From Escherichia phage Lw1: a stretch of DNA of 64,000 bases. The position numbers and the translations under genes are program-made. This document shows positions 17,634 to 45,037 of this stretch, in pieces (position 1 is the first letter of the stretch; the number at the start of each line of letters is the position of its first letter). Location of the stretch: sequence record KC801932. One strand, given 5' to 3'. The notes under the pieces are model-generated. The model was not told the origin of the DNA and ran no database searches. It saw only the letters and a program-made list of their open reading frames with translations.

Positions 17634-18497
17634 ATGGCATATCAAACAGGCAAAAAATTAATTGACGTGGGGCAGATCGGCAACCCGTCAACTGGTGACC
17701 CGCTGTATGACGGCGGTGTAAAACTTAACGAAATCATCACCAACGTGTATAACGCGTTTGGTGATGTGCGTTTACTGACTGCAAACGATGGTGTGGGTAC
17801 AATGCTGCTCCACGCTACCGGATATTTTCAGAAGTTACCACGTACCTATTATTCAGGCAATCCGATCGAACTGGGTTCCTTGCATGATATGGATACGTCA
17901 ACAGGACCGATCACGGTTGTTCTTCCTTCTGGCAAAGCGGGTGAAGGATGTTATTTCATAAATAGTAACGGTAGTATTTCTGTTGACCGTCCTCTGGTGT
18001 TCCGTCCTCAAGTTGGCGATAATATCAAAGGTGTCCAGGATCAGCTTTACATCACCTCTCCATACACCCAGATTAAATTGTGGTGTGTTAAGAAAGAGGG
18101 TTCTGTAACCACATGGGATTATTCAGTCGAATCAATGTTCGGCTCTAAAACAATGCCAGTGGATACTACCAAACTAATTCTGAAAGCATCACCGACCGCA
18201 ATTCCTTTATTCGGTTACACTGAATTCAGCGGGGCGAAATTGCTCGTATATGCTGAAAGTATGACAGGAACAGTCAATAAAATGGCTGAAATCCTTCTCG
18301 CGGTAGACCGTATTGCTAAAGGCGTGTATTCAACAGAATATGCTGTTCTGAAAAATAGCGATGACGATATGTACACCCTTACTTTCACTGTCGGCGCTGG
18401 TGATGTGGTATATGCAAACGTACAATCCAAAGTCGAAGATCGCATTAAGTTTTCGATTAAAGCGATTGACACCATTAAATCAGGGATCGCAGCATGA
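17634..18497 (+). CDS. 9: baseplate wedge tail fiber connector gp9
   Basis: 287 aa, synteny. Confidence 0.8.
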   Translation: MAYQTGKKLIDVGQIGNPSTGDPLYDGGVKLNEIITNVYNAFGDVRLLTANDGVGTMLLHATGYFQKLPRTYYSGNPIELGSLHDMDTSTGPITVVLPSGKAGEGCYFINSNGSISVDRPLVFRPQVGDNIKGVQDQLYITSPYTQIKLWCVKKEGSVTTWDYSVESMFGSKTMPVDTTKLILKASPTAIPLFGYTEFSGAKLLVYAESMTGTVNKMAEILLAVDRIAKGVYSTEYAVLKNSDDDMYTLTFTVGAGDVVYANVQSKVEDRIKFSIKAIDTIKSGIAA

Positions 18498-20311
18498 AAC
18501 AAGAAATTATTATAGGTAACGTGGTTGATGACGGCGCTGGCGATTACTTACGCCGTGGTGGTCAAAAAACAAACGCGAACTTTACCGAATTATATGAAAA
18601 GCTGGGTGACGGGGAAATCCCTCACCCAGCGGGTGCGTGGAAAACGCATTCCGCTCCTACATTGAACCCTATTTTTGGTGATTCATGGGCGCTGAATACC
18701 AGTAACAACCGTATTACTGTAAACCTCCCTAAAGGGGGCGTAAGCGATTATAACAAGGTTATTCGTCTGCGTGATGTTTGGAGTAAATGGGCGGTTAACA
18801 ACGTGCGTATCGTTCCGGCAACGGGAGACACCATCAAAGGTTCACCAACTTACAAAGAACTGTACAAAGATTTCATGGATGTTGAACTGGTTTATTGTGC
18901 TCCTGGGCGTTGGGAATACGTCGAGAACAAACAGGTTGACAAAATAACAACTTCGGATCTGGCTACCGTAGCGAAAGAAACCTATATCGCAACTCAGGGA
19001 CAGACAGACTTCCCGAATGTGTTCGGTCCTGGCAACATGTACAACGTTCGTGCTCTCGAAGTCTACTATCGTGGTAACTTGCTGTACATCGACGATAAGA
19101 ACGGCTTTAATGAAGCAAACAGTGATTACGGTTCGCCTGGGGCAACTGCGGGGCAACTCGTAGAACTGGATGGAACCAACATACGCCTTAAACGTCCCTG
19201 TAACGCTGGTGACACGCTTCAATTTGTCACCTATATGGATGGTATAGCAACATGGCGTTCGACGTATGAAGCGCATACAATGCGCGTATACAACACTGGA
19301 GACACTGAACTTGTGAGCGTACCTGGTGAAATCTGGGTTGGCGATCTGGCTAACAAGAAAGAATTCACCACTGCTGAATTTGGTATCAGTTCCCGTGTGT
19401 TGATTAACCCGAATTCATTCGAACTGCTGCTGAACGGTCGTCAGCTTGTAAAAGCAGGTGATGCGGATCTTCCTACGTTTGTTTGTGAAGGTGCGGAAGG
19501 TTATGATGAAGATAGCTGTTTGGCTAACTCCGGTTTATGGGTTCCGTCTGGACAGGATTACAGTCTAATCTTTGTTAACTCTATTGTGACTGGGATTAAG
19601 TTTCATCAGGCACTGGAAACCCGCGATGTGGTAACAATCCGTTGGTTCAATAACGATATCGGAACCGTAATGGAATGGGACGGCGTAGGCGGTATTAAAG
19701 AGCATACGGATAAACTGTATCTGAATAACGAAGACGAATTGACTTTGGTTAATCAGATTGAATATACAGACTACAACAACCCGTCACAAAAAACAATGCG
19801 TAAGGTTGCAGATCCTTTCGTTGGTCGTCTGTTGGATTTGCAAGCGTTTTTCGATGTGATTCACCCTATTGGGACAATTTACGAAAACGCACACAACGAC
19901 GCAAACCCAGGCGATTATATGGGATTTGGTATCTGGACACGATATGCAGAAGGGATGTTTATTGCTGGTTGGACTACCGATGCAGCAGATAGCGATTTTG
20001 GGCTGAACAATAACGATCTGGATGGTTCCGGTCAACCTACACACACATCAGGTGGTACTGGTGGTGAACGCGGCTACGAAATCAAACCGATCAACGTTCC
20101 ACAAATCGAATCTACCGATAAAGTTCTGATTAAGGACGATAACGGGATCATTATCATTGGTGGTTGTCAGGTTGACCCAGATGCAACAGGACCAGGATAC
20201 ACTAAATACCGTGAGGATGTATTGAAAGTAAATCAGGGTAATACTACTCCTGATAAGCTGAAAACGCTCCCTCCGTATATTACTGCACATCGCTGGATAA
20301 GGGTAGCATAA
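18494..20311 (+). CDS. 10: baseplate wedge subunit / tail pin gp10
   Basis: 605 aa, synteny. Confidence 0.85.
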   Translation: MKQEIIIGNVVDDGAGDYLRRGGQKTNANFTELYEKLGDGEIPHPAGAWKTHSAPTLNPIFGDSWALNTSNNRITVNLPKGGVSDYNKVIRLRDVWSKWAVNNVRIVPATGDTIKGSPTYKELYKDFMDVELVYCAPGRWEYVENKQVDKITTSDLATVAKETYIATQGQTDFPNVFGPGNMYNVRALEVYYRGNLLYIDDKNGFNEANSDYGSPGATAGQLVELDGTNIRLKRPCNAGDTLQFVTYMDGIATWRSTYEAHTMRVYNTGDTELVSVPGEIWVGDLANKKEFTTAEFGISSRVLINPNSFELLLNGRQLVKAGDADLPTFVCEGAEGYDEDSCLANSGLWVPSGQDYSLIFVNSIVTGIKFHQALETRDVVTIRWFNNDIGTVMEWDGVGGIKEHTDKLYLNNEDELTLVNQIEYTDYNNPSQKTMRKVADPFVGRLLDLQAFFDVIHPIGTIYENAHNDANPGDYMGFGIWTRYAEGMFIAGWTTDAADSDFGLNNNDLDGSGQPTHTSGGTGGERGYEIKPINVPQIESTDKVLIKDDNGIIIIGGCQVDPDATGPGYTKYREDVLKVNQGNTTPDKLKTLPPYITAHRWIRVA

Positions 20312-20973
20312 TGACACAATTTATTTCAAAGACAAGGGAGGGGGCGAAAGTCCCTTCTCGTGAAGCAGACTTTTTGCAATATGAAATGGGTACGAAAGAA
20401 CCCCTTATTGGTGGTAAACGTACCATCGGCGGTGCAAACGTTGATCAGCTTCGCAAAGGGATAGACTATCCCAACGTACAATCAGCAATCGATGACCTGT
20501 ATTCTCTGACTCAACAGATCCCGATTAACGGGGTTATCATGATGACAGAAGACAGTCCACCGACCGCTGTTCAGCAGGTAGAAACAATCACGTTTGATGG
20601 AACTGTACAAAATCCAGATCCAGACCAAACGAAAGCAACCGTTCATGTTTATGGCTTTCCGTTTGTATTCGATAACACAACGAACGCCTCTACGGTATGC
20701 GAAACAGTATTCAACAAGTTTACTGAATTTGTCAACGACGAAAAATATTTCGATCTGGTTACGCGTAAAGGATTGAACGGGGAAATTCTGGAAGTTCGTT
20801 TTATTGATGCGGTTCCACATCCGGTAACTAACGCAACAGAAAACGGGATCTCTATGGTTGGTGTAATCGACGTACAGGCGCGTTCTGGTTACGGTACGTG
20901 GTCGAAACTGGGTGAGATTGATCTTGCTGTAACTCCACCTGTTCCGATTTATTATTTCAAACGTATTGCGTAA
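20311..20973 (+). CDS. 11: baseplate wedge subunit / tail pin gp11
   Basis: 220 aa, synteny. Confidence 0.8.
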   Translation: MTQFISKTREGAKVPSREADFLQYEMGTKEPLIGGKRTIGGANVDQLRKGIDYPNVQSAIDDLYSLTQQIPINGVIMMTEDSPPTAVQQVETITFDGTVQNPDPDQTKATVHVYGFPFVFDNTTNASTVCETVFNKFTEFVNDEKYFDLVTRKGLNGEILEVRFIDAVPHPVTNATENGISMVGVIDVQARSGYGTWSKLGEIDLAVTPPVPIYYFKRIA

Positions 20974-20982
20974 GGATAACCA

Positions 20983-22374
20983 ATGAGTAACAACACAATT
21001 AACCACGTAAGCGATGCGTCAGTTTACGTGACTTTCGATCCGGCTGGTACGCAATGGCCTTCGACGTTTACCAACGTACAGCAAGCCCTAGCCTCTATAG
21101 GCTCATGGGCGCGTGAAGATGTGGGTTTGCCTAACGCTGCCCCTGGTGTGCGTGGTATCGCTGCTATTGCTACCGAGGCGATGATTGACGCAGGTACTGA
21201 CACCGAAACGATCGTTACTCCAGCGCTGTTGGCATATCGTTTACAGAATCCTCATGCGTCACAAACTGTATGGGGTTATACCCGTTATGCGACCGATGCA
21301 GAAGCAACCACAATCACTAACGATTTGGTTTCTGTAACTCCGCGTTCTGTTGATGTTATTTTCAACACCAGACAAGCAACAGAAACTGTATGGGGTTCTG
21401 CGAAACTGTCAACTACAGCACAAGCAACATCAGGTACTGATGACACAACCGCAATGACTCCATTGAAGGTTAAACAAGCGATCTCCGCTCTGGTTCCGGT
21501 TCAATCTAACGCAACGGAAAGTTCGTTCGGTTTGGTTCAGTTGGCTACGGTTGCAGAAGTCCGCGCAGGTACTATCCGCGATGGATTTGCAATTTCACCA
21601 TATACGTTTATTCGTCTGAATGCAACAGAATCCGATCTAGGTATTATTCGAATAGCTTCACAGGGTGAAGTCAACACAGGCGCTGATGATACAAAAGCTG
21701 TTACCCCGCTGAAACTGGCTAACTTGAAAGGTTCTGGTAGCGCGTTTGGTTTGGTTAAATTATCAACAGATGTAAACACAGGGCTGGCGAACACAGCGCT
21801 TTCTGCTGGTGCTAACGTGGTTCCGAGCAACCGTGATAGTGCAATTACTGGTGGTGCTCTGTATCAGGGTTCAGTTACTGGTGCTAATAAATACCAAACA
21901 CATAGCGACGTTGAAGCAAATATTCCTATTGGGTGTATGATGCTCGCGGCATTCAACTCAGATTACGGAAACCTGTTTATCGCAAACGGTCGCGCGATGA
22001 ATAGAAACGCAAACCCAGAACTATTTGCACGTATTGGCTACGCATATGGCGGTAGTGGTGATATTTTCAACCTCCCAGATATGCGCGGGGTTGCTGCTCG
22101 TGGTTTCGATGCGGGACGTGGGTTAGATCCTGGTCGCGGGTTTGGTACATATCAGGCCGATGCGTTTGCGTATCACGAACATAACCTACAGATGATTTTG
22201 CTGAACGGCGGTAATATTCCATCAAGTCAGGCTGTTTATGAACTGAAATGGGCCAAGAAAAATGACCAACGAATCTATGATTTAGATCCGAACTATAGCA
22301 AAGCTAAGGGTGTTGGTGCTAACGAAACGCGAATGAAAAACGTTGCGGTCAACTATGTAATTCGAGTACGATAA
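20983..22374 (+). CDS. 12: short tail fiber protein gp12
   Basis: MSNNT..HVS N-terminus, repeated TxxxGxxKLxT motifs, C-terminal NLPDMRG...ELIGNETR..YIIRV-like region shared with T4 gp12. Confidence 0.9.
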   Translation: MSNNTINHVSDASVYVTFDPAGTQWPSTFTNVQQALASIGSWAREDVGLPNAAPGVRGIAAIATEAMIDAGTDTETIVTPALLAYRLQNPHASQTVWGYTRYATDAEATTITNDLVSVTPRSVDVIFNTRQATETVWGSAKLSTTAQATSGTDDTTAMTPLKVKQAISALVPVQSNATESSFGLVQLATVAEVRAGTIRDGFAISPYTFIRLNATESDLGIIRIASQGEVNTGADDTKAVTPLKLANLKGSGSAFGLVKLSTDVNTGLANTALSAGANVVPSNRDSAITGGALYQGSVTGANKYQTHSDVEANIPIGCMMLAAFNSDYGNLFIANGRAMNRNANPELFARIGYAYGGSGDIFNLPDMRGVAARGFDAGRGLDPGRGFGTYQADAFAYHEHNLQMILLNGGNIPSSQAVYELKWAKKNDQRIYDLDPNYSKAKGVGANETRMKNVAVNYVIRVR

Positions 22375-22386
22375 AGGGGTTAATCC

Positions 22387-24675
22387 ATGATTTCAAAACT
22401 TAACCCGTTACCAAAGATCCCGTTTGTTGATGGTGTCCCTTCGGACACCACACAAACCCCGATCAGTTGGATTCTTAACGGTGAGACTCTCGACGGGGCC
22501 AAAACAAAGGTCACTAGCGAGGGTTCTTTAAACAGATGCGGCGTTCTGGTTCAAAAGAACGCGGTGCAATTGGAAACAAACACCATTACGCAAACGGCAA
22601 AAATCAACGAAGTTATCGATCAAGTTAACCTCATTAGTGAAAACCTCGCGGCTATTTCTGATGAAAGCGTGATCGAAAAACTGGATCAGGTCGTTGCTGA
22701 TGTGGAAGTGTTAAAAGTCGATATGACTGCGGTTCAAGGTTCTACCGCAAGCAATACCCTGAAAATTCAGGATCTCGATAAAGATATCGGGACATGGGAT
22801 GCTACAACAGATCCAAAACACCGAACCATTCGCAAAGATATTATTTTTCTGAAAGGGGAAATGGGCGCATATCCTGGATTTAATCAGGACGGTGACGTAG
22901 ATCCTACTTCAACTGGCTCTGGAATGAAATACAAAATCATGACGAACGCGCAAGCGATTTCGATTCATGAAGGGCGTATTACCAGACTGGAAGACGATTG
23001 GGCCAACTCAGATGTAGGCCATTTAACTGATGAAGTTACCGACTTGCGTAATGAAATGGGGCCGAAACATTTAGCAACGTTTGAATCGGTGTACGTTCGT
23101 CTGAATAAAATTGGTACGGATATCACTGGGATTAATACCGAACTGACAGAAATCAACCAATATATCGGTCGTACTGGTACAGGTGGTTCTGGAAGTATTT
23201 CTGCTCGAATGACTACGGCAGAAACGAATATTGTTACTCTGCAAACGCAGATGAATGATTCTTCCGTTGGTGTTCTTCCTCGCGTAATTTCTCTTGAAAA
23301 CCAAGTTGGGAATTCGCAGGTTCCGGGTAGTATTCGTTATGATATCAGTAATATCAAACGTGACATTAGCGACCTGAATATGGTTGTTGGTGAATCAAGC
23401 GATGAAGGGCTACGGGGCGAAATGGCTCAGGTTATGTCCGATATCGGTACAGATTCACAACCTACAAGCATTAAAGGCCGTCTGCTTAACGTAGAGAATA
23501 CGCAGCGCGACGATCACCAGCGTTTGATTGATGTCGAATCTATTGTTGGTAACACCTCAAGCGGACTTGTTGCGGCTAACATCGCAATGGGTAAAGCGGT
23601 TTATGGTGATGCAACCAGTTCAGATCCGTTCCTCAAAGACGGTATTCAGAAAACGACTCGCGATAGCAAAACTGCAATTGGTGTCAACACTACAGGTTCT
23701 GAAACTGGAATCTATAAGTTGATTTCCGATCTGACTGCTCGTGTTGCTGCTCTGGAAAGTGGTTCTGGTAGTGATCTCGAACAGCGTGTTTCCGATCTTG
23801 AAGTCAATAAAGCATCGCATCAGGACGTTACAAACGCACTGGTTCCGTATATTACTGAAACTGAGGCCGATATCAAGTACGAACCGAAGAAGATTCCGCT
23901 TGCGTTCACTCAAAACCTCGTTGGTCGAAATGATTATATCGAAGGTGATGACATTTCTCTGATGGTTACTGTATCTGGTGGTAAAGTCCCTTATGCGTAC
24001 CAGTGGAAGAAAGACAACGCGAACGTAGGTACGAACGCATCAAGTTTGATGATCCAGACCATCACATCGGCTAACGCTGGCGTGTATAAGGTTGAAGTAA
24101 CTGACGCAGATAACACGGTTATCACTTCTAACGAATTGACAATTGCTGTTTATCCGGTTCCTCAGTTCGATACTAACCTGGCTGATAAATCAGTGGTTGA
24201 CGGTGATCCTCTGACTCTGGAAGTTGTGTATAGCGGCGGTAAACCTTCGTACACTTACGAGTGGTTCAAAGATAACTCTGTTATCTCTGGGGCAACATCA
24301 GCAACATTTACCAAATCTGCGGTTACAAGTGCCGATGCTGGTGAATACTATGTTTCTGTGACTGACTCGATGAACAACCAAAATGATTCAGTGAAAGCAA
24401 ATGTGACGGTAACACCACGTCCTGCACTGGCATTCACTACGGATCTGAGTTCTACTAAATCATATAGCACAGGTGCTGATATGGACCTTGCTGTTGTCGT
24501 AACTGGTGGTAAAACACCATATACGTACAAATGGTTTAAAGACACTGCGGAAATTTCCGGTCAGACAGGCGCAAGCCTTACCACTGTAGCAGAAGATGGA
24601 GTGTATAAAGTCGAAGTGACTGATGCACTAACGACTAAAATCACATCAACTGAATGCACGGTAACTGTTGCATAA
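22387..24675 (+). CDS. wac: fibritin (wac) with three C-terminal Ig-like repeats
   Basis: N-terminus (LPKIPFVDGVPSD..ISWILNGETLDG) like T4 fibritin; long coiled-coil; C-terminal ~230 aa made of three repeats (GGKxPYxYxWxKD...GxYxVxVTD). Confidence 0.8.
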   Translation: MISKLNPLPKIPFVDGVPSDTTQTPISWILNGETLDGAKTKVTSEGSLNRCGVLVQKNAVQLETNTITQTAKINEVIDQVNLISENLAAISDESVIEKLDQVVADVEVLKVDMTAVQGSTASNTLKIQDLDKDIGTWDATTDPKHRTIRKDIIFLKGEMGAYPGFNQDGDVDPTSTGSGMKYKIMTNAQAISIHEGRITRLEDDWANSDVGHLTDEVTDLRNEMGPKHLATFESVYVRLNKIGTDITGINTELTEINQYIGRTGTGGSGSISARMTTAETNIVTLQTQMNDSSVGVLPRVISLENQVGNSQVPGSIRYDISNIKRDISDLNMVVGESSDEGLRGEMAQVMSDIGTDSQPTSIKGRLLNVENTQRDDHQRLIDVESIVGNTSSGLVAANIAMGKAVYGDATSSDPFLKDGIQKTTRDSKTAIGVNTTGSETGIYKLISDLTARVAALESGSGSDLEQRVSDLEVNKASHQDVTNALVPYITETEADIKYEPKKIPLAFTQNLVGRNDYIEGDDISLMVTVSGGKVPYAYQWKKDNANVGTNASSLMIQTITSANAGVYKVEVTDADNTVITSNELTIAVYPVPQFDTNLADKSVVDGDPLTLEVVYSGGKPSYTYEWFKDNSVISGATSATFTKSAVTSADAGEYYVSVTDSMNNQNDSVKANVTVTPRPALAFTTDLSSTKSYSTGADMDLAVVVTGGKTPYTYKWFKDTAEISGQTGASLTTVAEDGVYKVEVTDALTTKITSTECTVTVA

Positions 24676-24710: not shown

Positions 24711-25634
24711 ATGATTACGAACAACCCTGAACAATTGAAGGATGAAATTCTTCGTCGTCTGGGCGCACCAATCATCAAAATCGAAATCACACAAGACCAG
24801 ATTTACGATTGCATTCAACGCGCACTGGATCTGTATGCGGAATATCATTACAACGGAACAAACAAAAGCTATATTATTCTGACACTGGGCGAAGATAACC
24901 CACGCAACGTATTTGATTTGAGCAAAGAACACATTTTCGCGATCACAAAAGTATTGCGTACAAATATCGGTTCCCTGGTTTCTATGGATGGTACAGCGGT
25001 TTATCCGTGGTTTACCGATTTCCTGATGGGGCTTACTGGTGGTTCATTGGGCGGTCGCTGTTCATCCAGTGTATACGGTATGAACGCATACGGTGCGGAT
25101 CTGGGGTATTTTACACAGATGATGTCCTATCAGCGCTCGATGCAAGATTTGCTGGCTCCGTTGCCTGATTACTGGTACAACGATGACACTGGTCAATTTT
25201 GCGCATGGGGTAAAGTCAACTACGGTGATATCATTGTTATTGAAGCGATGGTCCGTTCTTTCGTTGACGTTCCTAGTGCCGTAGGAAGCGTTGCAGGATA
25301 CGCTACAGCGGGTTCTAACGCAGTAGAAGACCAATCTATAGCCGACATCTACGATAACCCTTATAACGCGGTTGTGGGCGGTGTACGTGCGGGGCAGGGA
25401 ACAACTGTTACTGGTGGAACCTCTGCATATAACAACCGTTGGGTAAAAGACTACTCGACCGCGCTGGTAAAAGAAATCAACGGACAAATTCTGGCTAAGT
25501 TCCAGGGTATGCAATTGCCTGGTGGTGTTGCTCCTGATGGAACGCGACTGATCCAGGAAGCAGAAACCAAATTACAAGGATTGCGCGACGAACTGATTTC
25601 TATGTCTGACGCAGTTCCTATTATTATGGTGTAG
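24711..25634 (+). CDS. 13: neck protein gp13
   Basis: N-terminal region (PEQLKDEILRRLGAPIIKIEITQDQIYDCIQRALDLY) nearly identical in pattern to T4 gp13. Confidence 0.9.
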   Translation: MITNNPEQLKDEILRRLGAPIIKIEITQDQIYDCIQRALDLYAEYHYNGTNKSYIILTLGEDNPRNVFDLSKEHIFAITKVLRTNIGSLVSMDGTAVYPWFTDFLMGLTGGSLGGRCSSSVYGMNAYGADLGYFTQMMSYQRSMQDLLAPLPDYWYNDDTGQFCAWGKVNYGDIIVIEAMVRSFVDVPSAVGSVAGYATAGSNAVEDQSIADIYDNPYNAVVGGVRAGQGTTVTGGTSAYNNRWVKDYSTALVKEINGQILAKFQGMQLPGGVAPDGTRLIQEAETKLQGLRDELISMSDAVPIIMV

Positions 25635-25642
25635 GGGGAATA

Positions 25643-26389
25643 ATGCAAAACTGGGATGAAAGTTTATTCGCTCAGTTGTCAACGGGAGAGGGAGTTGATC
25701 GCAACTTAAAGGATCAAGTTACTAACCCGTATGTAAACTGGTACAAATATAACCCGACACAACAGCTACACGATTCACTGACAGCAGAATCCATACAGAT
25801 GAAATCACCTGATATGTATTATGTCAGACGTGAATTTGTGAATATAGATAAAATACTGGGTGAAGACCGAGAATCTAAATTTACGAAATCGTGGAAGATT
25901 GCGGCATATATTGAATCATACGCCAACTACGAAGGACAGCGGGACTTCTTTAGCAAATTTGGGTTGAGTTCTAACGACGAAATGACGCTGGTACTGAATC
26001 CGCGTTTATTTGCACATCAAACTGATGGTGGTATTCCTGTGTTGGGGGATTTGATTTATTTCCCTATGGACAACAGCCTGTTTGAAATTACATGGGTGGA
26101 AGCAGATCCGTTCTATCAGTTCGGTGATCGTCCTCAACGTAAAATCAACCTGGCTAAATTCATCTACACGGGCGAAGAATTGGCTCCTGAATTGCAGCGA
26201 AACGAGGGAATCCATATTGAACCTGATGCAGAACTGGATCTTGAACCTATTCGAAATCTCGACGGGCTGGCAGATATCAACATTGAACAGTACGAAGAAG
26301 ACAAAGAATTTGAAAAAGAAAGTGACGAGTTCATCGATTCTTTTGATGTTGTCAACGGACGCGGATCTCCATTCGCAACGTTGCCCTAA
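25643..26389 (+). CDS. 14: neck protein gp14
   Basis: 248 aa, synteny. Confidence 0.8.
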   Translation: MQNWDESLFAQLSTGEGVDRNLKDQVTNPYVNWYKYNPTQQLHDSLTAESIQMKSPDMYYVRREFVNIDKILGEDRESKFTKSWKIAAYIESYANYEGQRDFFSKFGLSSNDEMTLVLNPRLFAHQTDGGIPVLGDLIYFPMDNSLFEITWVEADPFYQFGDRPQRKINLAKFIYTGEELAPELQRNEGIHIEPDAELDLEPIRNLDGLADINIEQYEEDKEFEKESDEFIDSFDVVNGRGSPFATLP

Positions 26390-26446
26390 ATAGTTTATAT
26401 GGGTATAGGCGAAAGTCTGTACCCTCTTCGAAGAGGATTTTATGAT

Positions 26447-27172
26447 ATGGTTGCAAAAATCTCTATAGAACAAAGAGAACATCAATTAAAAGAACGTTGT
26501 GCGGAATTAGAACTATCTTTTGATGGATGGGTAGACCAATCAGCGATCACAAAATATTCAAAGTTTTATGTTGTTTGCAGTAAAGGACATAGAACAGAAA
26601 AACAGATCAAACCATTTGTCAACAAAAGTCGTCCAAACGGATGTTATTTGTGTTCCCCTAAGATGAAAATATCAAAGGAAAACAGAATCGAGGAAATCAA
26701 AACTCTTGCAGATTCAATTGGATATACATTCGTAGATTTCGTTGGGGTGTATAAAGATGCACACACAAAAATATCAATGGTTTGCGATAAAGGCCATAAT
26801 TGGGATGTAAGTATAGTTGCTTTTCTCAATCAAGGTCATCGCTGTAAAAAATGCGCAACGTCTGGGTTCAATCCGAACAAACCAGCATACGTATACGTAC
26901 AATCACTATCTGGAAAATTTCTGAAATTTGGGATAACCAACAGAACACCAAAGAAAAGAATGTGTGCGCAATCAAATAAATCCGTTTATAAACACGAACT
27001 GGTTTATCAAAAATTATTCGATAAAGGTATTGATGCAATGAGTATTGAACAGAAGATCAAACAATCTCTTGTTTGTGGCGTAGTCGATAAATCAGATATG
27101 ATGGATGGATATACAGAAACAACAGATATATCCAATTACGATAAACTGTTGAATATTATAGAAGGAGTATAA
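26447..27172 (+). CDS. tandem zinc-ribbon protein with C-terminal GIY-YIG-like (T5orf172-type) motif; putative freestanding homing-endonuclease-like insertion between gp14 and gp15
   Basis: Two C-x-KGH...C-xx-C modules; motif YVYVQSLSGKFLKFGITNR; absent from this position in T4; start set at ATG 26447 with SD, palindrome cctcttcgaagagg just upstream. Confidence 0.5.
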   Translation: MVAKISIEQREHQLKERCAELELSFDGWVDQSAITKYSKFYVVCSKGHRTEKQIKPFVNKSRPNGCYLCSPKMKISKENRIEEIKTLADSIGYTFVDFVGVYKDAHTKISMVCDKGHNWDVSIVAFLNQGHRCKKCATSGFNPNKPAYVYVQSLSGKFLKFGITNRTPKKRMCAQSNKSVYKHELVYQKLFDKGIDAMSIEQKIKQSLVCGVVDKSDMMDGYTETTDISNYDKLLNIIEGV

Positions 27173-36663: not shown

Positions 36664-38244
36664 ATGTCTAAGAAAAACGAATTGATGGAAAAATGGAACG
36701 ATCTTCTGGAATCTCAGGAAGGTTTACCGGATATCGCTACCAAATCCAAAAAACAACTGGTCGCTGCCATTCTGGAAGCACAGGAAAAAGACGCTGAAAC
36801 CGATCCGGTTTATCGCGACGAAAAAATTGTGGAATCCTTCGGTGGTTTCCTGGCAGAAGCAGAAATTGCTGGCGATCATAACTATGACCCGACCAACATC
36901 GCTTCTGGTAAATCCAGCGGTGCTATCACCAACATCGGTCCTGCTGTAATCGGTATGGTTCGCCGTGCGATCCCTAACCTGATTGCGTTCGACATTTGCG
37001 GTGTTCAGCCTATGACTGGTCCTACTGGTCAGGTGTTCGCTCTCCGTGCTGTCTACGGTAAAGATCCTCTGGCTGGCGGTACTCCGGCAGATGTTCGTGA
37101 AGCATTCCATCCGATGTTTGCCCCGGATACCATGTATTCTGGTCAGGGTGCTGCACCAAGCAACGGTTTCGCGAAAATCACTACTGGTACTGCAATTGCA
37201 ACTGGCGCTATCGTTTACCACTTCTTCGAAGAAACTGGTATTGCGTACTTCCAGAACGTAACTTCTGGTAACGTAACCGTAACTGGTGCTACTCCGGCAG
37301 AACTGGACCTGGCTGTTACCGCAGAGAACGAAAAAGGTACTCTGGCTGAAATTTCTCAGGCTATGGCTACCAGTGTAGCAGAACTCCAGGAAAACTTCAA
37401 CGGTTCCAGTTCTAACCCGTGGAACGAAATGGCTTTCCGTATCGACAAACAGGTTATCGAAGCCCGTAGCCGTCAACTGAAAGCACAGTATTCCGTTGAA
37501 CTGGCACAGGATCTCCGCGCTGTTCACGGTATGGACGCTGACGCAGAACTGTCTGCAATCCTGGCAACTGAAATCATGCTGGAAATCAACCGCGAAATCG
37601 TTGATCTGATCAACTTTACCGCGCAGATTGGTAAAACTGGTTTCACCAAGACTGTAGGCTCTAAAGCTGGTGCGTTTGACTTCCAAGATCCGGTAGATAT
37701 TCGCGGCGCTCGTTGGGCTGGTGAAAGCTACAAAGCTCTGTTGATTCAGATCGACAAAGAAGCGAACGAAATCGCACGTCAAACAGGCCGTGGTGCTGGT
37801 AACTTCATCATCGCTTCCCGTAACGTGGTTTCCGCTCTGGCTCGTATCGACAGCGGTATTACTCCGGCAGGTCAGGGCTTGCAGAAGTCTCTGAACGTTG
37901 ACACTACCAAAGCGGTATTCGCTGGTGTTCTGGGTGGCACTTACAAAGTGTACATCGACCAGTACGCTCGTAGCGATTACTTCACCGTTGGCTTCAAGGG
38001 TGATAACGAAATGGATGCTGGTATCTACTACGCTCCATACGTTGCGCTTACCCCGCTGCGTGGTTCTGATCCGAAGAACTTCCAGCCAGTAATGGGCTTC
38101 AAAACTCGTTACGGTATCGGTATCAACCCGTTTGCGAACTCTCGCACTCAGGCTCCGGCAGATCGTATCACCTCCGGTATGATCACTAAAGACATGGTCG
38201 GCAAAAACGCATACTTCCGTAAAGTATACGTTAAAGGTCTGTAA
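36664..38244 (+). CDS. 23: major capsid protein gp23
   Basis: Long stretches matching T4 gp23 (GPAVIGMVRRAIPNLIAFDICGVQPM, NPWNEMAFRIDKQVIEA, GIYYAPYVALTPLRGSDPKNFQPVMGFKTRYGIGINPFA). Confidence 0.97.
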   Translation: MSKKNELMEKWNDLLESQEGLPDIATKSKKQLVAAILEAQEKDAETDPVYRDEKIVESFGGFLAEAEIAGDHNYDPTNIASGKSSGAITNIGPAVIGMVRRAIPNLIAFDICGVQPMTGPTGQVFALRAVYGKDPLAGGTPADVREAFHPMFAPDTMYSGQGAAPSNGFAKITTGTAIATGAIVYHFFEETGIAYFQNVTSGNVTVTGATPAELDLAVTAENEKGTLAEISQAMATSVAELQENFNGSSSNPWNEMAFRIDKQVIEARSRQLKAQYSVELAQDLRAVHGMDADAELSAILATEIMLEINREIVDLINFTAQIGKTGFTKTVGSKAGAFDFQDPVDIRGARWAGESYKALLIQIDKEANEIARQTGRGAGNFIIASRNVVSALARIDSGITPAGQGLQKSLNVDTTKAVFAGVLGGTYKVYIDQYARSDYFTVGFKGDNEMDAGIYYAPYVALTPLRGSDPKNFQPVMGFKTRYGIGINPFANSRTQAPADRITSGMITKDMVGKNAYFRKVYVKGL

Positions 38245-38259
38245 GACTTTACACAAGAA

Positions 38260-38286
38260 AGGCAACCTACGGGTTGCCTTTTTTTA
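38260..38286 (+). terminator. rho-independent terminator after gp23
   Basis: aggcaacc tacg ggttgcct hairpin + ttttttt. Confidence 0.8.
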
Positions 38287-38336: not shown

Positions 38337-39635
38337 ATGAGTGAAAAACATTACACAATTCACAAGTTGATGCGTCAGTCTACGCTTCCCCCTGGTAAAC
38401 GCGAAAAGGTTATCAACGAAGCAACTGGAACGACCGACATCAACGTACAGAACACGCGCCCAGAACTGGTTTCTTTGACTCGCGCTGTTAACAACCTGAT
38501 CTATCATGAACTGGTTGCTGTACAAGAAACAAATTTACCCGTAGCAACTCTGTTTGGTGTTCGCTATCGTAACCCTAACGGCGACATGACTTTCTCCAGC
38601 GCTGCAACCTATTCAGGCCGCATATCTGGACGTACAGACATCGACGATATCGATCTGGCTAAGGCATACGTCAAAGGCGATTTATTCAAGCACGATGTCA
38701 CTGACGTTGTGTATGAGGTCATCGAACCTGTAACGCTAAACGCGCTGGATACTGATAAAGACACCGCAATCATGAAAGCTGTGTTCCAAAGTAAAATTCG
38801 TTTGGTTAGCGAAGCCGCAGACACTTCAAAATATGAAACCAGTGAAGATATCGCATCAACCTCTTTCCAGATGGATCGCTGGAACATTCCGGTTCGTTCA
38901 CGTAAGTTTAAAACTGAAATGACCGTGGAATTGATGCAGGATCTGGAAGCAAACCAGTTTGAAGCCGATGGGGTAATTGAAGATATCCTGGGTACGGTTG
39001 CAAGCGAAGAAGTCAACAAAGATATTATTCAGACGCTGATCACCGTTTCCAAACGATATAACGTTGATGGTGTAGTTGTCGATGGTATTTTTGACGGTAC
39101 AACCGCATACACTGCGAAGGATGCTCCAGCATTGGGCCGCATACTCTATCAATTAGCGTGTGAAATGGGTCAAGAAATGAATAGAACGACTTCATTTGAT
39201 GCAACCTACGTCCTCGCTAGTGCTCGCGTTGTAGGCGTTCTGGCTGCGTCTGGTTGGATGACCGAAACCGACGAACAACACCCGCTGGCAACTGGTAAAC
39301 TTCAAAACGGTTATTATGTCTATACCGACACGAATACACCGTTTGATTATCTGCTTACCGGATGCAAATACGATCTGGGTGATATGGATCACGTAGGTTC
39401 TCTGTTCTTCACTCCGTACACCGAAGCGGATGAAGCAGGTTCAATCAAGGTATCCGTAGATCCTGCATCACTGCAACCGAAAGTTGCTATTCTGATGCGT
39501 TACGGTTTATCTGTGAACCCATACACAACGGAATCCGACTCTGAACGGTTGACCAAAGGCGATGACTGGTCGAATCTGGCTGGTAAATCCAAACTCAGTC
39601 AAATCGTAGGTATTAAATTACCTAAGCTGGGTTAA
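38337..39635 (+). CDS. 24: capsid vertex protein gp24
   Basis: 432 aa; motifs LVSLTRA, SRKFKTEMTVELMQDLEAN, TLITVSKRY, LQP..A.L.RYGLS.NPYT shared with T4 gp24. Confidence 0.95.
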   Translation: MSEKHYTIHKLMRQSTLPPGKREKVINEATGTTDINVQNTRPELVSLTRAVNNLIYHELVAVQETNLPVATLFGVRYRNPNGDMTFSSAATYSGRISGRTDIDDIDLAKAYVKGDLFKHDVTDVVYEVIEPVTLNALDTDKDTAIMKAVFQSKIRLVSEAADTSKYETSEDIASTSFQMDRWNIPVRSRKFKTEMTVELMQDLEANQFEADGVIEDILGTVASEEVNKDIIQTLITVSKRYNVDGVVVDGIFDGTTAYTAKDAPALGRILYQLACEMGQEMNRTTSFDATYVLASARVVGVLAASGWMTETDEQHPLATGKLQNGYYVYTDTNTPFDYLLTGCKYDLGDMDHVGSLFFTPYTEADEAGSIKVSVDPASLQPKVAILMRYGLSVNPYTTESDSERLTKGDDWSNLAGKSKLSQIVGIKLPKLG

Positions 39636-39904: not shown

Positions 39905-40327
39905 ATGGCTGAACTAAAACTTGAAGATTTACAGGCTGAACTCGAAAAGGATATGTTGATCGACCCTCTGAAACTACAGAGTGAATCAGCAGACATTCCT
40001 AAGATTTGGTCTAAGTGGCTTCGATATCATTCGAATGCTAAGAAAAAACTGATCCAGCTACAGGCCAGGAAAGAAGCAGAAGTGAAAGAACGGCTTCTGT
40101 ACTATACTGGAAGACACGAAACCGAAATGACTGATGTCATTTACACGGGTTCAGGTGAAATCAAGATCGCGATCAACGGTGATCCGAAAATTGTTGAGGT
40201 TAACAAACTGATTCAGTATTTCGAACTGATTGCGGAATTCACCAGTAAAGCCCTGGACATTGTTAAGAACAAAGGATATTCTATCAAAAATATGTTGGAA
40301 ATCCGAAAACTTGAAAGTGGTGCATAA
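39905..40327 (+). CDS. uvsY: recombination mediator UvsY
   Basis: 140 aa; LEDLQ.EL.KD..ID..KLQ...A...K..SKWL..HS pattern like T4 UvsY. Confidence 0.85.
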   Translation: MAELKLEDLQAELEKDMLIDPLKLQSESADIPKIWSKWLRYHSNAKKKLIQLQARKEAEVKERLLYYTGRHETEMTDVIYTGSGEIKIAINGDPKIVEVNKLIQYFELIAEFTSKALDIVKNKGYSIKNMLEIRKLESGA

Positions 40328-42757: not shown

Positions 42758-42829
42758 TATGATTACCCTATGTACATTGTATATAGGTATTTATGCAATA
42801 AATATTGGATAAACCCACTGGAGATACCA

Positions 42830-43483
42830 ATGAAAATTGATTACGAATTAGTAGAAGGGTTCCGTGCTCTGTCTACAAAAGAACAAAAAGGCGCACTGGC
42901 TGACTATGCGCAAAGCACCTTCGATGTAAAACTGAACAAACAGAAATCATTCGATAACATGCTGGCTGATCTGGAAGCTGCTGTACCAGCGGAAGAAGAT
43001 AAACCAGAACTGTTGATTGATTCGCCTGAACCGGAAATTCTGATTAAAGTTGGTGATATAACAGTCACTTCTGACGCAATGAAAGTTGAGATTGATTCGC
43101 CTGTTGATCTATCTGGTGACTTCATGCAATACGTTAAAGACGTTGCTCCTTGTGTCGCTGATCAGATCACGCTAGTTACCGATGATGTAGAACCTCCTGT
43201 AAGCGATTCTAACGAGTCCAAACCCGATATGGCATGGTTGGATTGTTTTAGCCCTACAATCGTTCTGATGGGGCGTAGCGCTCGTTCTAATGGGTATTAC
43301 ACATGCCCCTGGTGGATCTACGATTGGATTAAGAAAAATCCAGATTGGCACAAAGATCCTGACCAGTGTCCGCACTACAGCGCACGGGATACTCTCAAAT
43401 CGCTGGTGTACTACATCAAGCGTGATGGACAAGTTACGGTGCGTGAAACCCGCAACAGTAGTTTCGACACCTTCAAATTTTAG
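42830..43483 (+). CDS. hypothetical protein (217 aa)
   Basis: ORF track trimmed to ATG 42830 with GGAG SD; shares a YxxPWWI(Y/F)D motif with ORF 44534..45037. Confidence 0.55.
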   Translation: MKIDYELVEGFRALSTKEQKGALADYAQSTFDVKLNKQKSFDNMLADLEAAVPAEEDKPELLIDSPEPEILIKVGDITVTSDAMKVEIDSPVDLSGDFMQYVKDVAPCVADQITLVTDDVEPPVSDSNESKPDMAWLDCFSPTIVLMGRSARSNGYYTCPWWIYDWIKKNPDWHKDPDQCPHYSARDTLKSLVYYIKRDGQVTVRETRNSSFDTFKF

Positions 43484-44533: not shown

Positions 44534-45037
44534 ATGGCTACTGAAAAATGGACTACGGTTCACCCTATCCCGTGGCGTAATACCAGTTTTACCTATCTCC
44601 CGTGGTGGATCTTCGATATTATCGTTGCTGCTAATACGGCTGGTGATGACTGGCGAGGTTACGCCGAAGAAAAATATGCGAAAGAATTCGACACTCTGAA
44701 ACAGGCATACATCGATTATACCGATGTTGATTTCATCGAATCTCGCAACGGTTATCTGTATAAACTGAGTGATTTTACTCCTGCTGATCCTGTCGTAACA
44801 ATTACACCAAAAACCGCTCCTGCTGATTTCAAAGTAGGTGATGCTGACCTAGCTGCAACTGATCTGTTTACCATCGATCCTTCTGGTACAGCAATGACTC
44901 TGAGTGTTGACTCTTCCGGTCATGGTTCTATCGTTGGTGGTAAACTCCATGCGGTTAGTGAAGGTGATGTTGTCGTAACAGCAACCTCTGGATCTGTTAC
45001 TGCAACTCTGACGGTAAACGTTAAACCTGCACTATAA
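44534..45037 (+). CDS. hypothetical protein with C-terminal Ig-like (Big_2-type) region
   Basis: C-terminal beta-rich segment (VVTITPKTA...SVTATLTVNV); N-terminal YLPWWIFDII motif. Confidence 0.55.
   Translation: MATEKWTTVHPIPWRNTSFTYLPWWIFDIIVAANTAGDDWRGYAEEKYAKEFDTLKQAYIDYTDVDFIESRNGYLYKLSDFTPADPVVTITPKTAPADFKVGDADLAATDLFTIDPSGTAMTLSVDSSGHGSIVGGKLHAVSEGDVVVTATSGSVTATLTVNVKPAL

Follow-up and report, generated by a model that had tools for sequence, protein, structure and literature searches.

Fibritin of Escherichia phage Lw1 ends in three predicted Ig-like modules, the standard architecture of the RB43 group

The wac locus of phage Lw1

The 64,000-nucleotide stretch of Escherichia phage Lw1 analysed here (from sequence record KC801932; hereafter the window) contains a cluster of tail and neck genes identified by Pfam and PHROG searches, in which wac, the gene for fibritin (neck whisker), lies between gp12 and gp13 in the order gp10-gp11-gp12-wac-gp13-gp14:

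18494-20311, gp10 (Pfam and PHROG)
20311-20973, gp11 (Pfam and PHROG)
20983-22374, gp12, short tail fibre (Pfam and PHROG)
22387-24675, + strand, wac, fibritin (neck whisker), 762 aa (ORF listing, PHROG, phmmer and nucleotide matches)
24711-25634, gp13, neck (Pfam and PHROG)
25643-26389, gp14, neck (Pfam and PHROG)

The annotated gene order around wac is identical in RB43. The 762-aa product matches phrog_1056 'fibritin neck whisker' (E = 1.2e-180) and the Pfam Fibritin_C model (78.3 bits, cut-off 21, E = 5.1e-22); among solved structures, phmmer returns T4 fibritin (2bsg/3j2o) with E = 1.5e-47, residues 9-457 of the Lw1 protein aligning in one unbroken piece to residues 7-455 of the T4 protein. 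The single-piece alignment with T4 fibritin and the matches to phrog_1056 and Fibritin_C therefore identify this ORF as wac, which is 87% identical at the nucleotide level, over its full length, to the wac genes of IME-CF2, Miller and RB43. The product is an ordinary fibritin (gpwac) of the Pseudotevenvirus RB43/RB16/Miller group. A programmed frameshift or a separate ORF for the C-terminal Ig-like part described below was ruled out, the modules lying in frame within one uninterrupted ORF.

Downstream of this cluster, a 257-aa ORF between gp14 and gp15 (26399-27172, + strand) encodes a CapR homology domain (Pfam E = 9.3e-18) and matches phrog_681 'endonuclease'. The same slot in RB43 is occupied by an unrelated mobE homing endonuclease with no detectable similarity to the 257-aa ORF of Lw1, which suggests that mobile endonucleases replace one another at a single insertion site. 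Elsewhere in the window, a 513-aa ORF with a TTG start (36724-38265, - strand) overlaps nearly all of a 526-aa ORF (36664-38244, + strand); by its position relative to RB43, the + strand ORF probably encodes the major capsid protein (gene 23), and its minus-strand counterpart is most likely a non-coding shadow ORF.

Domain layout of Lw1 fibritin

The Lw1 protein is divided as follows:

22387-22584, + strand, N-terminal neck-attachment domain, aa 1-66 (aa 9-66 align to 1ox3 and 2ibl, fragments of the T4 fibritin N-terminus; phmmer)
22585-23757, + strand, fibrous shaft, aa 67-457, collinear with T4 fibritin (phmmer, Pfam Fibritin_C)
23758-23898, + strand, linker in the place of the foldon, aa 458-504, 47 residues (end of the T4 alignment, AlphaFold)
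23899-24159, + strand, predicted Ig-like module 1, aa 505-591 (HMM of the three repeats, AlphaFold beta-sandwich, SprB-repeat motif)
24160-24423, + strand, predicted Ig-like module 2, aa 592-679 (HMM, Pfam, AlphaFold)
24424-24672, + strand, predicted Ig-like module 3, aa 680-762, ending at the protein C-terminus (HMM over aa 681-762, phrog_3945, AlphaFold)

The N-terminal domain and segmented fibrous shaft are homologous to and collinear with those of T4 fibritin (2bsg, 3j2o, and foldon constructs of the 1aa0 type), which is encoded at the same gp12-gp13 locus; residues 9-66 also align by phmmer to the full-length T4 protein (2bsg). The C-termini differ: T4 fibritin, of the foldon-terminated T4/JS98 type, ends in a 27-residue foldon, whereas Lw1 fibritin ends in 305 residues comprising the linker and three Ig modules. 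The phmmer alignment with T4 fibritin stops at Lw1 residue 457, exactly where the foldon would start, and local alignment of the literature foldon sequence to the full Lw1 protein gives a score of 19, below the shuffle mean of 24.6 (shuffle maximum 40). Because the T4 alignment stops there and the foldon scores below the shuffle mean, the foldon is replaced: Lw1 fibritin has no foldon-like sequence and carries instead a 47-residue linker and three Ig-like modules. AlphaFold models the linker at low confidence, with block-mean pLDDT of 54-59 over most of residues 458-504 and three short helices.

Three tandem repeats with a predicted Ig fold

The repeat region occupies 23899-24672 (258 aa), with module boundaries at residues 505-591, 592-679 and 681-762 set by an HMM built from the three repeats. 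Three motifs recur once per module: GGK at residues 531, 617 and 707, W-x-K-D at 540, 626 and 716, and VTD at 571, 658 and 744. Their spacing gives a repeat period of 86-90 aa; the modules are about 84-88 aa long. The modules are 38-51% identical in pairwise comparison, and because their alignments score 21-28 standard deviations higher than 500 shuffles, the repeats are real and far from chance. They are seen at the protein level only, because the copies are too diverged at the DNA level, where Tandem Repeats Finder returns zero rows for wac; self-BLASTP of the whole protein returns the identity match only, and the repeats were then excised and aligned pairwise with shuffles.

Three families of Ig domains in Pfam match the modules above their cut-offs: Ig_3 (73.2 bits, cut-off 30; best stretch aa 593-659), Ig_2 (50.7 bits, cut-off 27; best stretch aa 603-671) and I-set (47.4 bits, cut-off 23.7; best stretch aa 592-670). 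The GGKxPYxYxW motif of module 1 (aa 524-541) triggers the Pfam SprB-repeat model, and module 3 matches a stretch of the Hoc-like phrog_3945 (aa 697-760); PHROG matches to Hoc-like proteins cover aa 482-760 only, corresponding to the Ig modules. Each module has a conserved core tryptophan of strand C (W540, W626, W716) and a 'tyrosine corner' motif of the form (A/D)-G-x-Y-x-V (AGVYKV, AGEYYV, DGVYKV), both read from the sequence. The canonical disulphide cysteines are absent from all three, as they are from the Ig modules of titin and Hoc.

An AlphaFold model of residues 458-762, built as a monomer on 23 aligned sequences, has a mean pLDDT of 90.3, with block means of 93-98 across residues 505-762, and consists over that span of three all-beta modules, each a beta-sandwich. 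The top Foldseek match of this model in the PDB is titin I67-I69 (E = 2.7e-17, probability 1.00), and other strings of three Ig domains are also returned, with RB49 Hoc (3shs) in eighth place (E = 2.1e-15, probability 1.00). RB49 Hoc is in addition a sequence match to the modules (phmmer, E = 2e-7), as are other phage decoration and tail proteins. By homology and by structure prediction, the repeats are I-set-type Ig-like modules.

These results bear out much of an earlier note on this DNA, made from the sequence alone, which had described three tandem Ig-like modules at the wac C-terminus, marked by GGK, W-KD and VTD motifs, in place of a T4-style foldon. The modules are confirmed by repeat analysis, Pfam, AlphaFold and Foldseek; each motif is found three times; and the domain search and structure prediction that the note had proposed yield, respectively, Ig_3, Ig_2 and I-set matches above cut-off and three confidently modelled beta-sandwiches with titin and Hoc fold matches. 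Its dimensions need correction: the modules are about 84-88 aa long rather than ~70 aa, and the first begins at nucleotide 23899 (aa 505), 25 residues or 75 nt upstream of the start at 23974 that the note had given.

Architecture and variation among relatives

Megablast matches wac to 55 phage records, all of Pseudotevenvirus type and with a best identity of 87%; 34 of these align over all 2289 nt. The matches include RB43, RB16, Miller, IME-CF2, CfP1 and Margaery as well as phages of Cronobacter, Enterobacter and Klebsiella, and over a 20-kb piece the window shares 92-94% identity with RB16, Miller and CfP1. RB43 fibritin (AAP04365 / YP_239189), the 'RB43-type' fibritin of Letarov et al. 2005 and Letarov & Krisch 2013, equals the Lw1 protein in length (762 aa; 2289 nt), gene position and layout of linker and three modules, with about 87% nucleotide identity over wac and 91% amino acid identity over the last 233 residues; the closest full-length homologue is IME-CF2 fibritin (92% amino acid identity). 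RB43 fibritin differs from that of Lw1 in sequence divergence only, which, as measured against IME-CF2, is concentrated in the linker (85% identity) and Ig1 (80%), identity elsewhere being 93-98%. The HMM finds the same three-module plan in the RB43-group homologue P0001.

This plan is already in the literature: RB43 fibritin is reported to carry three Ig-like domains and KP15 fibritin one, and an adhesin role has been proposed for these domains (Letarov & Krisch 2013, PMC3797505, citing Letarov 2005). The linker and Ig-module C-terminus is the standard, published architecture of RB43-group fibritins, so that the feature in Lw1 is real but ordinary. The earlier note had contrasted the Ig tip with the T4 foldon and had itself held that a standard group architecture would speak against its observation; because the architecture is the group norm and in print for RB43 (PMC3797505), that part of the note does not hold. 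Both the three-module observation and adhesion, the main functional idea of the note, are likewise already published. The three domains of RB43, the single domain of KP15 and the adhesin hypothesis were published in 2005 and 2013, and the locus has little discovery value. What is new here amounts to modest additions: the range of module counts from 1 to 5, the positional orthology of the modules, the Ig part as the fastest-evolving region, and the sharing of the module type with Hoc-like proteins.

Among the best 120 homologues, one module is found in 77 fibritins, two in 8, three in 25, four in 8 and five in 1; two short entries among the protein homologues have no module. One-module fibritins (KP15, KP27 and Miro type) are 571-587 aa long, two-module fibritins 663-679 aa, four-module fibritins 851-853 aa and the five-module protein 941 aa. 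The fibritins of KP15, KP27 and Miro (Slopekvirus) resemble that of Lw1 in N-terminus, shaft, linker and type of Ig module, at 51% identity over 77% of the Lw1 query, but have one module rather than three.

Among relatives, the N-terminal domain is the most conserved part (82-95% identity), followed by the shaft (83-93%), and the linker, Ig1 and Ig2 are the most variable (42-95%); in near relatives Ig3 is intermediate (76-98%) and exceeds Ig2 (44-95%) in most cases. The modules correspond by position as orthologues, and whole units are gained or lost, either terminally or internally: four-module fibritins have an unrelated distal module appended or one inserted between Ig2 and Ig3, two-module fibritins lack Ig3, and one-module types keep differing modules, that of P0038, for example, being Ig3-like. 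Tail and decoration proteins in 1587 phage records carry this module type as well.

These patterns bear on the possibility that the Ig modules are only a folding and trimerisation nucleus and a structural cap in the foldon's place, with no ligand. RB43 fibritin is reported to form trimers, and its folding and trimerisation, unlike those of T4 and JS98, need sequences in the expanded C-terminal domain (PMC3797505), which, together with the missing foldon of Lw1 fibritin, favours such a cap. Against it, one module is enough in KP15-type fibritins within a range of 1 to 5, the modules have diverged faster than the shaft, as a mere folding nucleus would not be expected to do, and the linker at residues 458-504 could hold the trimerisation signal instead. 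An exclusively structural role of this kind appears improbable.

A Hoc-like gene elsewhere in the window

The earlier note had also suggested that the whisker modules substitute for Hoc, which it had not found at its T4 location between gene 24 and uvsY. The relevant features are:

38337-39635, gene 24
39905-40327, uvsY
42770-43483, + strand, inh (prohead protease inhibitor), ~1 kb upstream of the Hoc-like gene
44534-45037, + strand, Hoc-like head-decoration gene, 167 aa, separate from wac (PHROG, ESRNG motif, AlphaFold, Foldseek)

Hoc is indeed absent from its T4 position, the interval between gene 24 and uvsY containing no + strand ORF of at least 50 aa; this absence only reflects local rearrangement relative to T4. 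The 167-aa ORF at 44534-45037 matches phrog_11091 'Hoc-like head decoration' (E = 1.9e-113) and has, at residues 68-72, the ESRNG motif, described as the conserved core of the domain by which Hoc binds the capsid (PMC10385173). AlphaFold (mean pLDDT 85.8) models the protein as an alpha/beta domain at the N-terminus with a beta-sandwich behind it at the C-terminus; in Foldseek the sandwich is matched by Big_2 domains, and the C-terminal capsid-binding domain of T4 Hoc (8t1x_X, 33% identity) is returned too, a match that presumably falls on the N-terminal half. Because of the phrog_11091 match, the ESRNG motif and the fold match to 8t1x_X, the ORF at 44534-45037 is taken as a Hoc orthologue.

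That the whisker modules make up for a missing Hoc could draw on the empty gene 24-uvsY interval, on the shortness of the Lw1 Hoc-like protein, with one Big_2-like domain as compared with three Ig-like domains in T4 Hoc (PMC10385173), and on an amber stop in the RB43 reference copy of the Hoc-like ORF. The intact Lw1 gene with its ESRNG motif largely refutes the idea; relatives with Ig-bearing fibritins, such as Yersinia phage JC221, keep Hoc-like genes; and in Wac a capsid-binding domain is missing, the Hoc-like PHROG families matching its Ig modules only and the ESRNG motif being absent from its sequence. Substitution for Hoc is thus not supported and is extremely improbable.

Hoc of T4 and RB49 (3shs, 8t1x) presents, like the Wac tip, three I-set-like Ig modules in tandem that face the medium, but it is a monomer on the capsid, bound by its C-terminal ESRNG domain, whereas Wac is attached at its N-terminal end to the neck, from which a presumably trimeric shaft extends. 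Three relatives of the Lw1 Hoc-like protein (P0165, P0166 and P0168) keep the capsid-binding N-terminal half, but where the Lw1 protein has its Big_2-like domain they carry a Wac-type Ig_3 module (GGxxPYTYxW ... YKCVVTD; 38% identity to Wac Ig1, E = 5e-15), which suggests, from sequence similarity, that modules have been shuffled between capsid decoration and whisker.

The Hoc-like genes themselves vary in several ways. In the Lw1 protein the capsid-binding domain is N-terminal and is followed by one Big_2-like sandwich, the reverse of the order in T4 Hoc, and other Hoc-like relatives of 245-247 aa carry two Big_2-like domains. At codon 62 the RB43 copy of the ORF (NC_007023.1, L002 2353-2856) reads TAG (amber) in place of the TAT that is intact in Lw1, and because of this change RB43 is annotated with two small 'Hoc-like' fragments (62 and 47 aa). 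Residues 171-229 of the Lw1 Inh homologue (42770-43483, + strand) weakly match the C-terminal, capsid-binding end of the Hoc-like phrog_1149 (E = 2.9e-6), which hints that Inh and Hoc may share a capsid-binding module.

Proposed role of the Ig-like tip

The distal part of T4 fibritin contacts the knee of the long tail fibres, helping fibre attachment and holding the fibres retracted under bad conditions. The Ig block could accordingly be, in the main, an RB43-group docking surface for the knee of the long tail fibre (the gp36 region) that serves fibre attachment and retraction. Such a surface would continue an established function of T4 fibritin, and Letarov et al. are reported to have noted in 2005 that novel gpwac C-termini accompany novel gp36 C-termini, a pairing that would favour docking. 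The gp36 of RB43 is unusually long (742 aa), and Ig3 is more conserved than Ig2 in most near relatives, as a conserved protein partner, for example the tail-fibre knee, could explain. Docking is the main rival to the adhesion model set out below. Docking as the main role is at odds, however, with a distal tip that is not constant across one-, two- and four-module fibritins, and with the occurrence of this module type on Hoc-like proteins of the capsid, which make no tail-fibre contact. Nor is simple covariation visible: gp36 of RB43 and that of Margaery are 54% identical, while both phages have three-module fibritins about 82% identical to that of Lw1. On this evidence docking is rather unlikely to be the main role of the block. 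Within the genus, gp36 is itself highly mosaic, the 742-aa RB43 protein (L003 7275-9503) being only 54% identical to that of Margaery despite the shared three-module plan of their fibritins, so that the gp36 comparison does not separate docking from adhesion; the tail-fibre genes of Lw1 lie outside the window.

An RB43-type fibritin whose Ig tip serves both folding and reversible adhesion is probably the best overall explanation. If Lw1 fibritin is trimeric, as other fibritins are, each whisker tip would display nine Ig-like modules. The C-terminal block would stand in for the foldon in folding and registration, as is reported from biochemical work on RB43 (PMC3797505), and the exposed modules would most likely act as weak, reversible adhesins for carbohydrates of the host-cell or mucus surface. 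The adhesion model follows what has been proposed for Hoc and further phage Ig-like domains, and the pattern of variability supports it: the divergence of the Ig part, the gain and loss of its units and its sharing with Hoc-like proteins would fit exposed, exchangeable modules that face the environment. Ig-like domains can, alternatively, be structural spacers or folding aids. As adhesins, the modules would keep the virion close to a surface until its long tail fibres locate their receptor, and a contact between whisker and tail fibre in the manner of T4 may persist beside adhesion.

A more specific proposal, possible but on balance doubtful, is that the whisker modules come from a pool of cassettes shuffled between Wac and Hoc-like proteins, and that their number, from 1 to 5, tunes reach and avidity; fibritin would then bear an accessory adhesin array that shapes host range or persistence in mucus, beyond its part as chaperone and sensor of the tail fibres. 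If the adhesin function of the Ig-like tip is true, fibritin would gain a role in primary, reversible adsorption, and the whisker of RB43-group phages would offer a natural scaffold on which to display binding modules on T4-like therapeutic phages.
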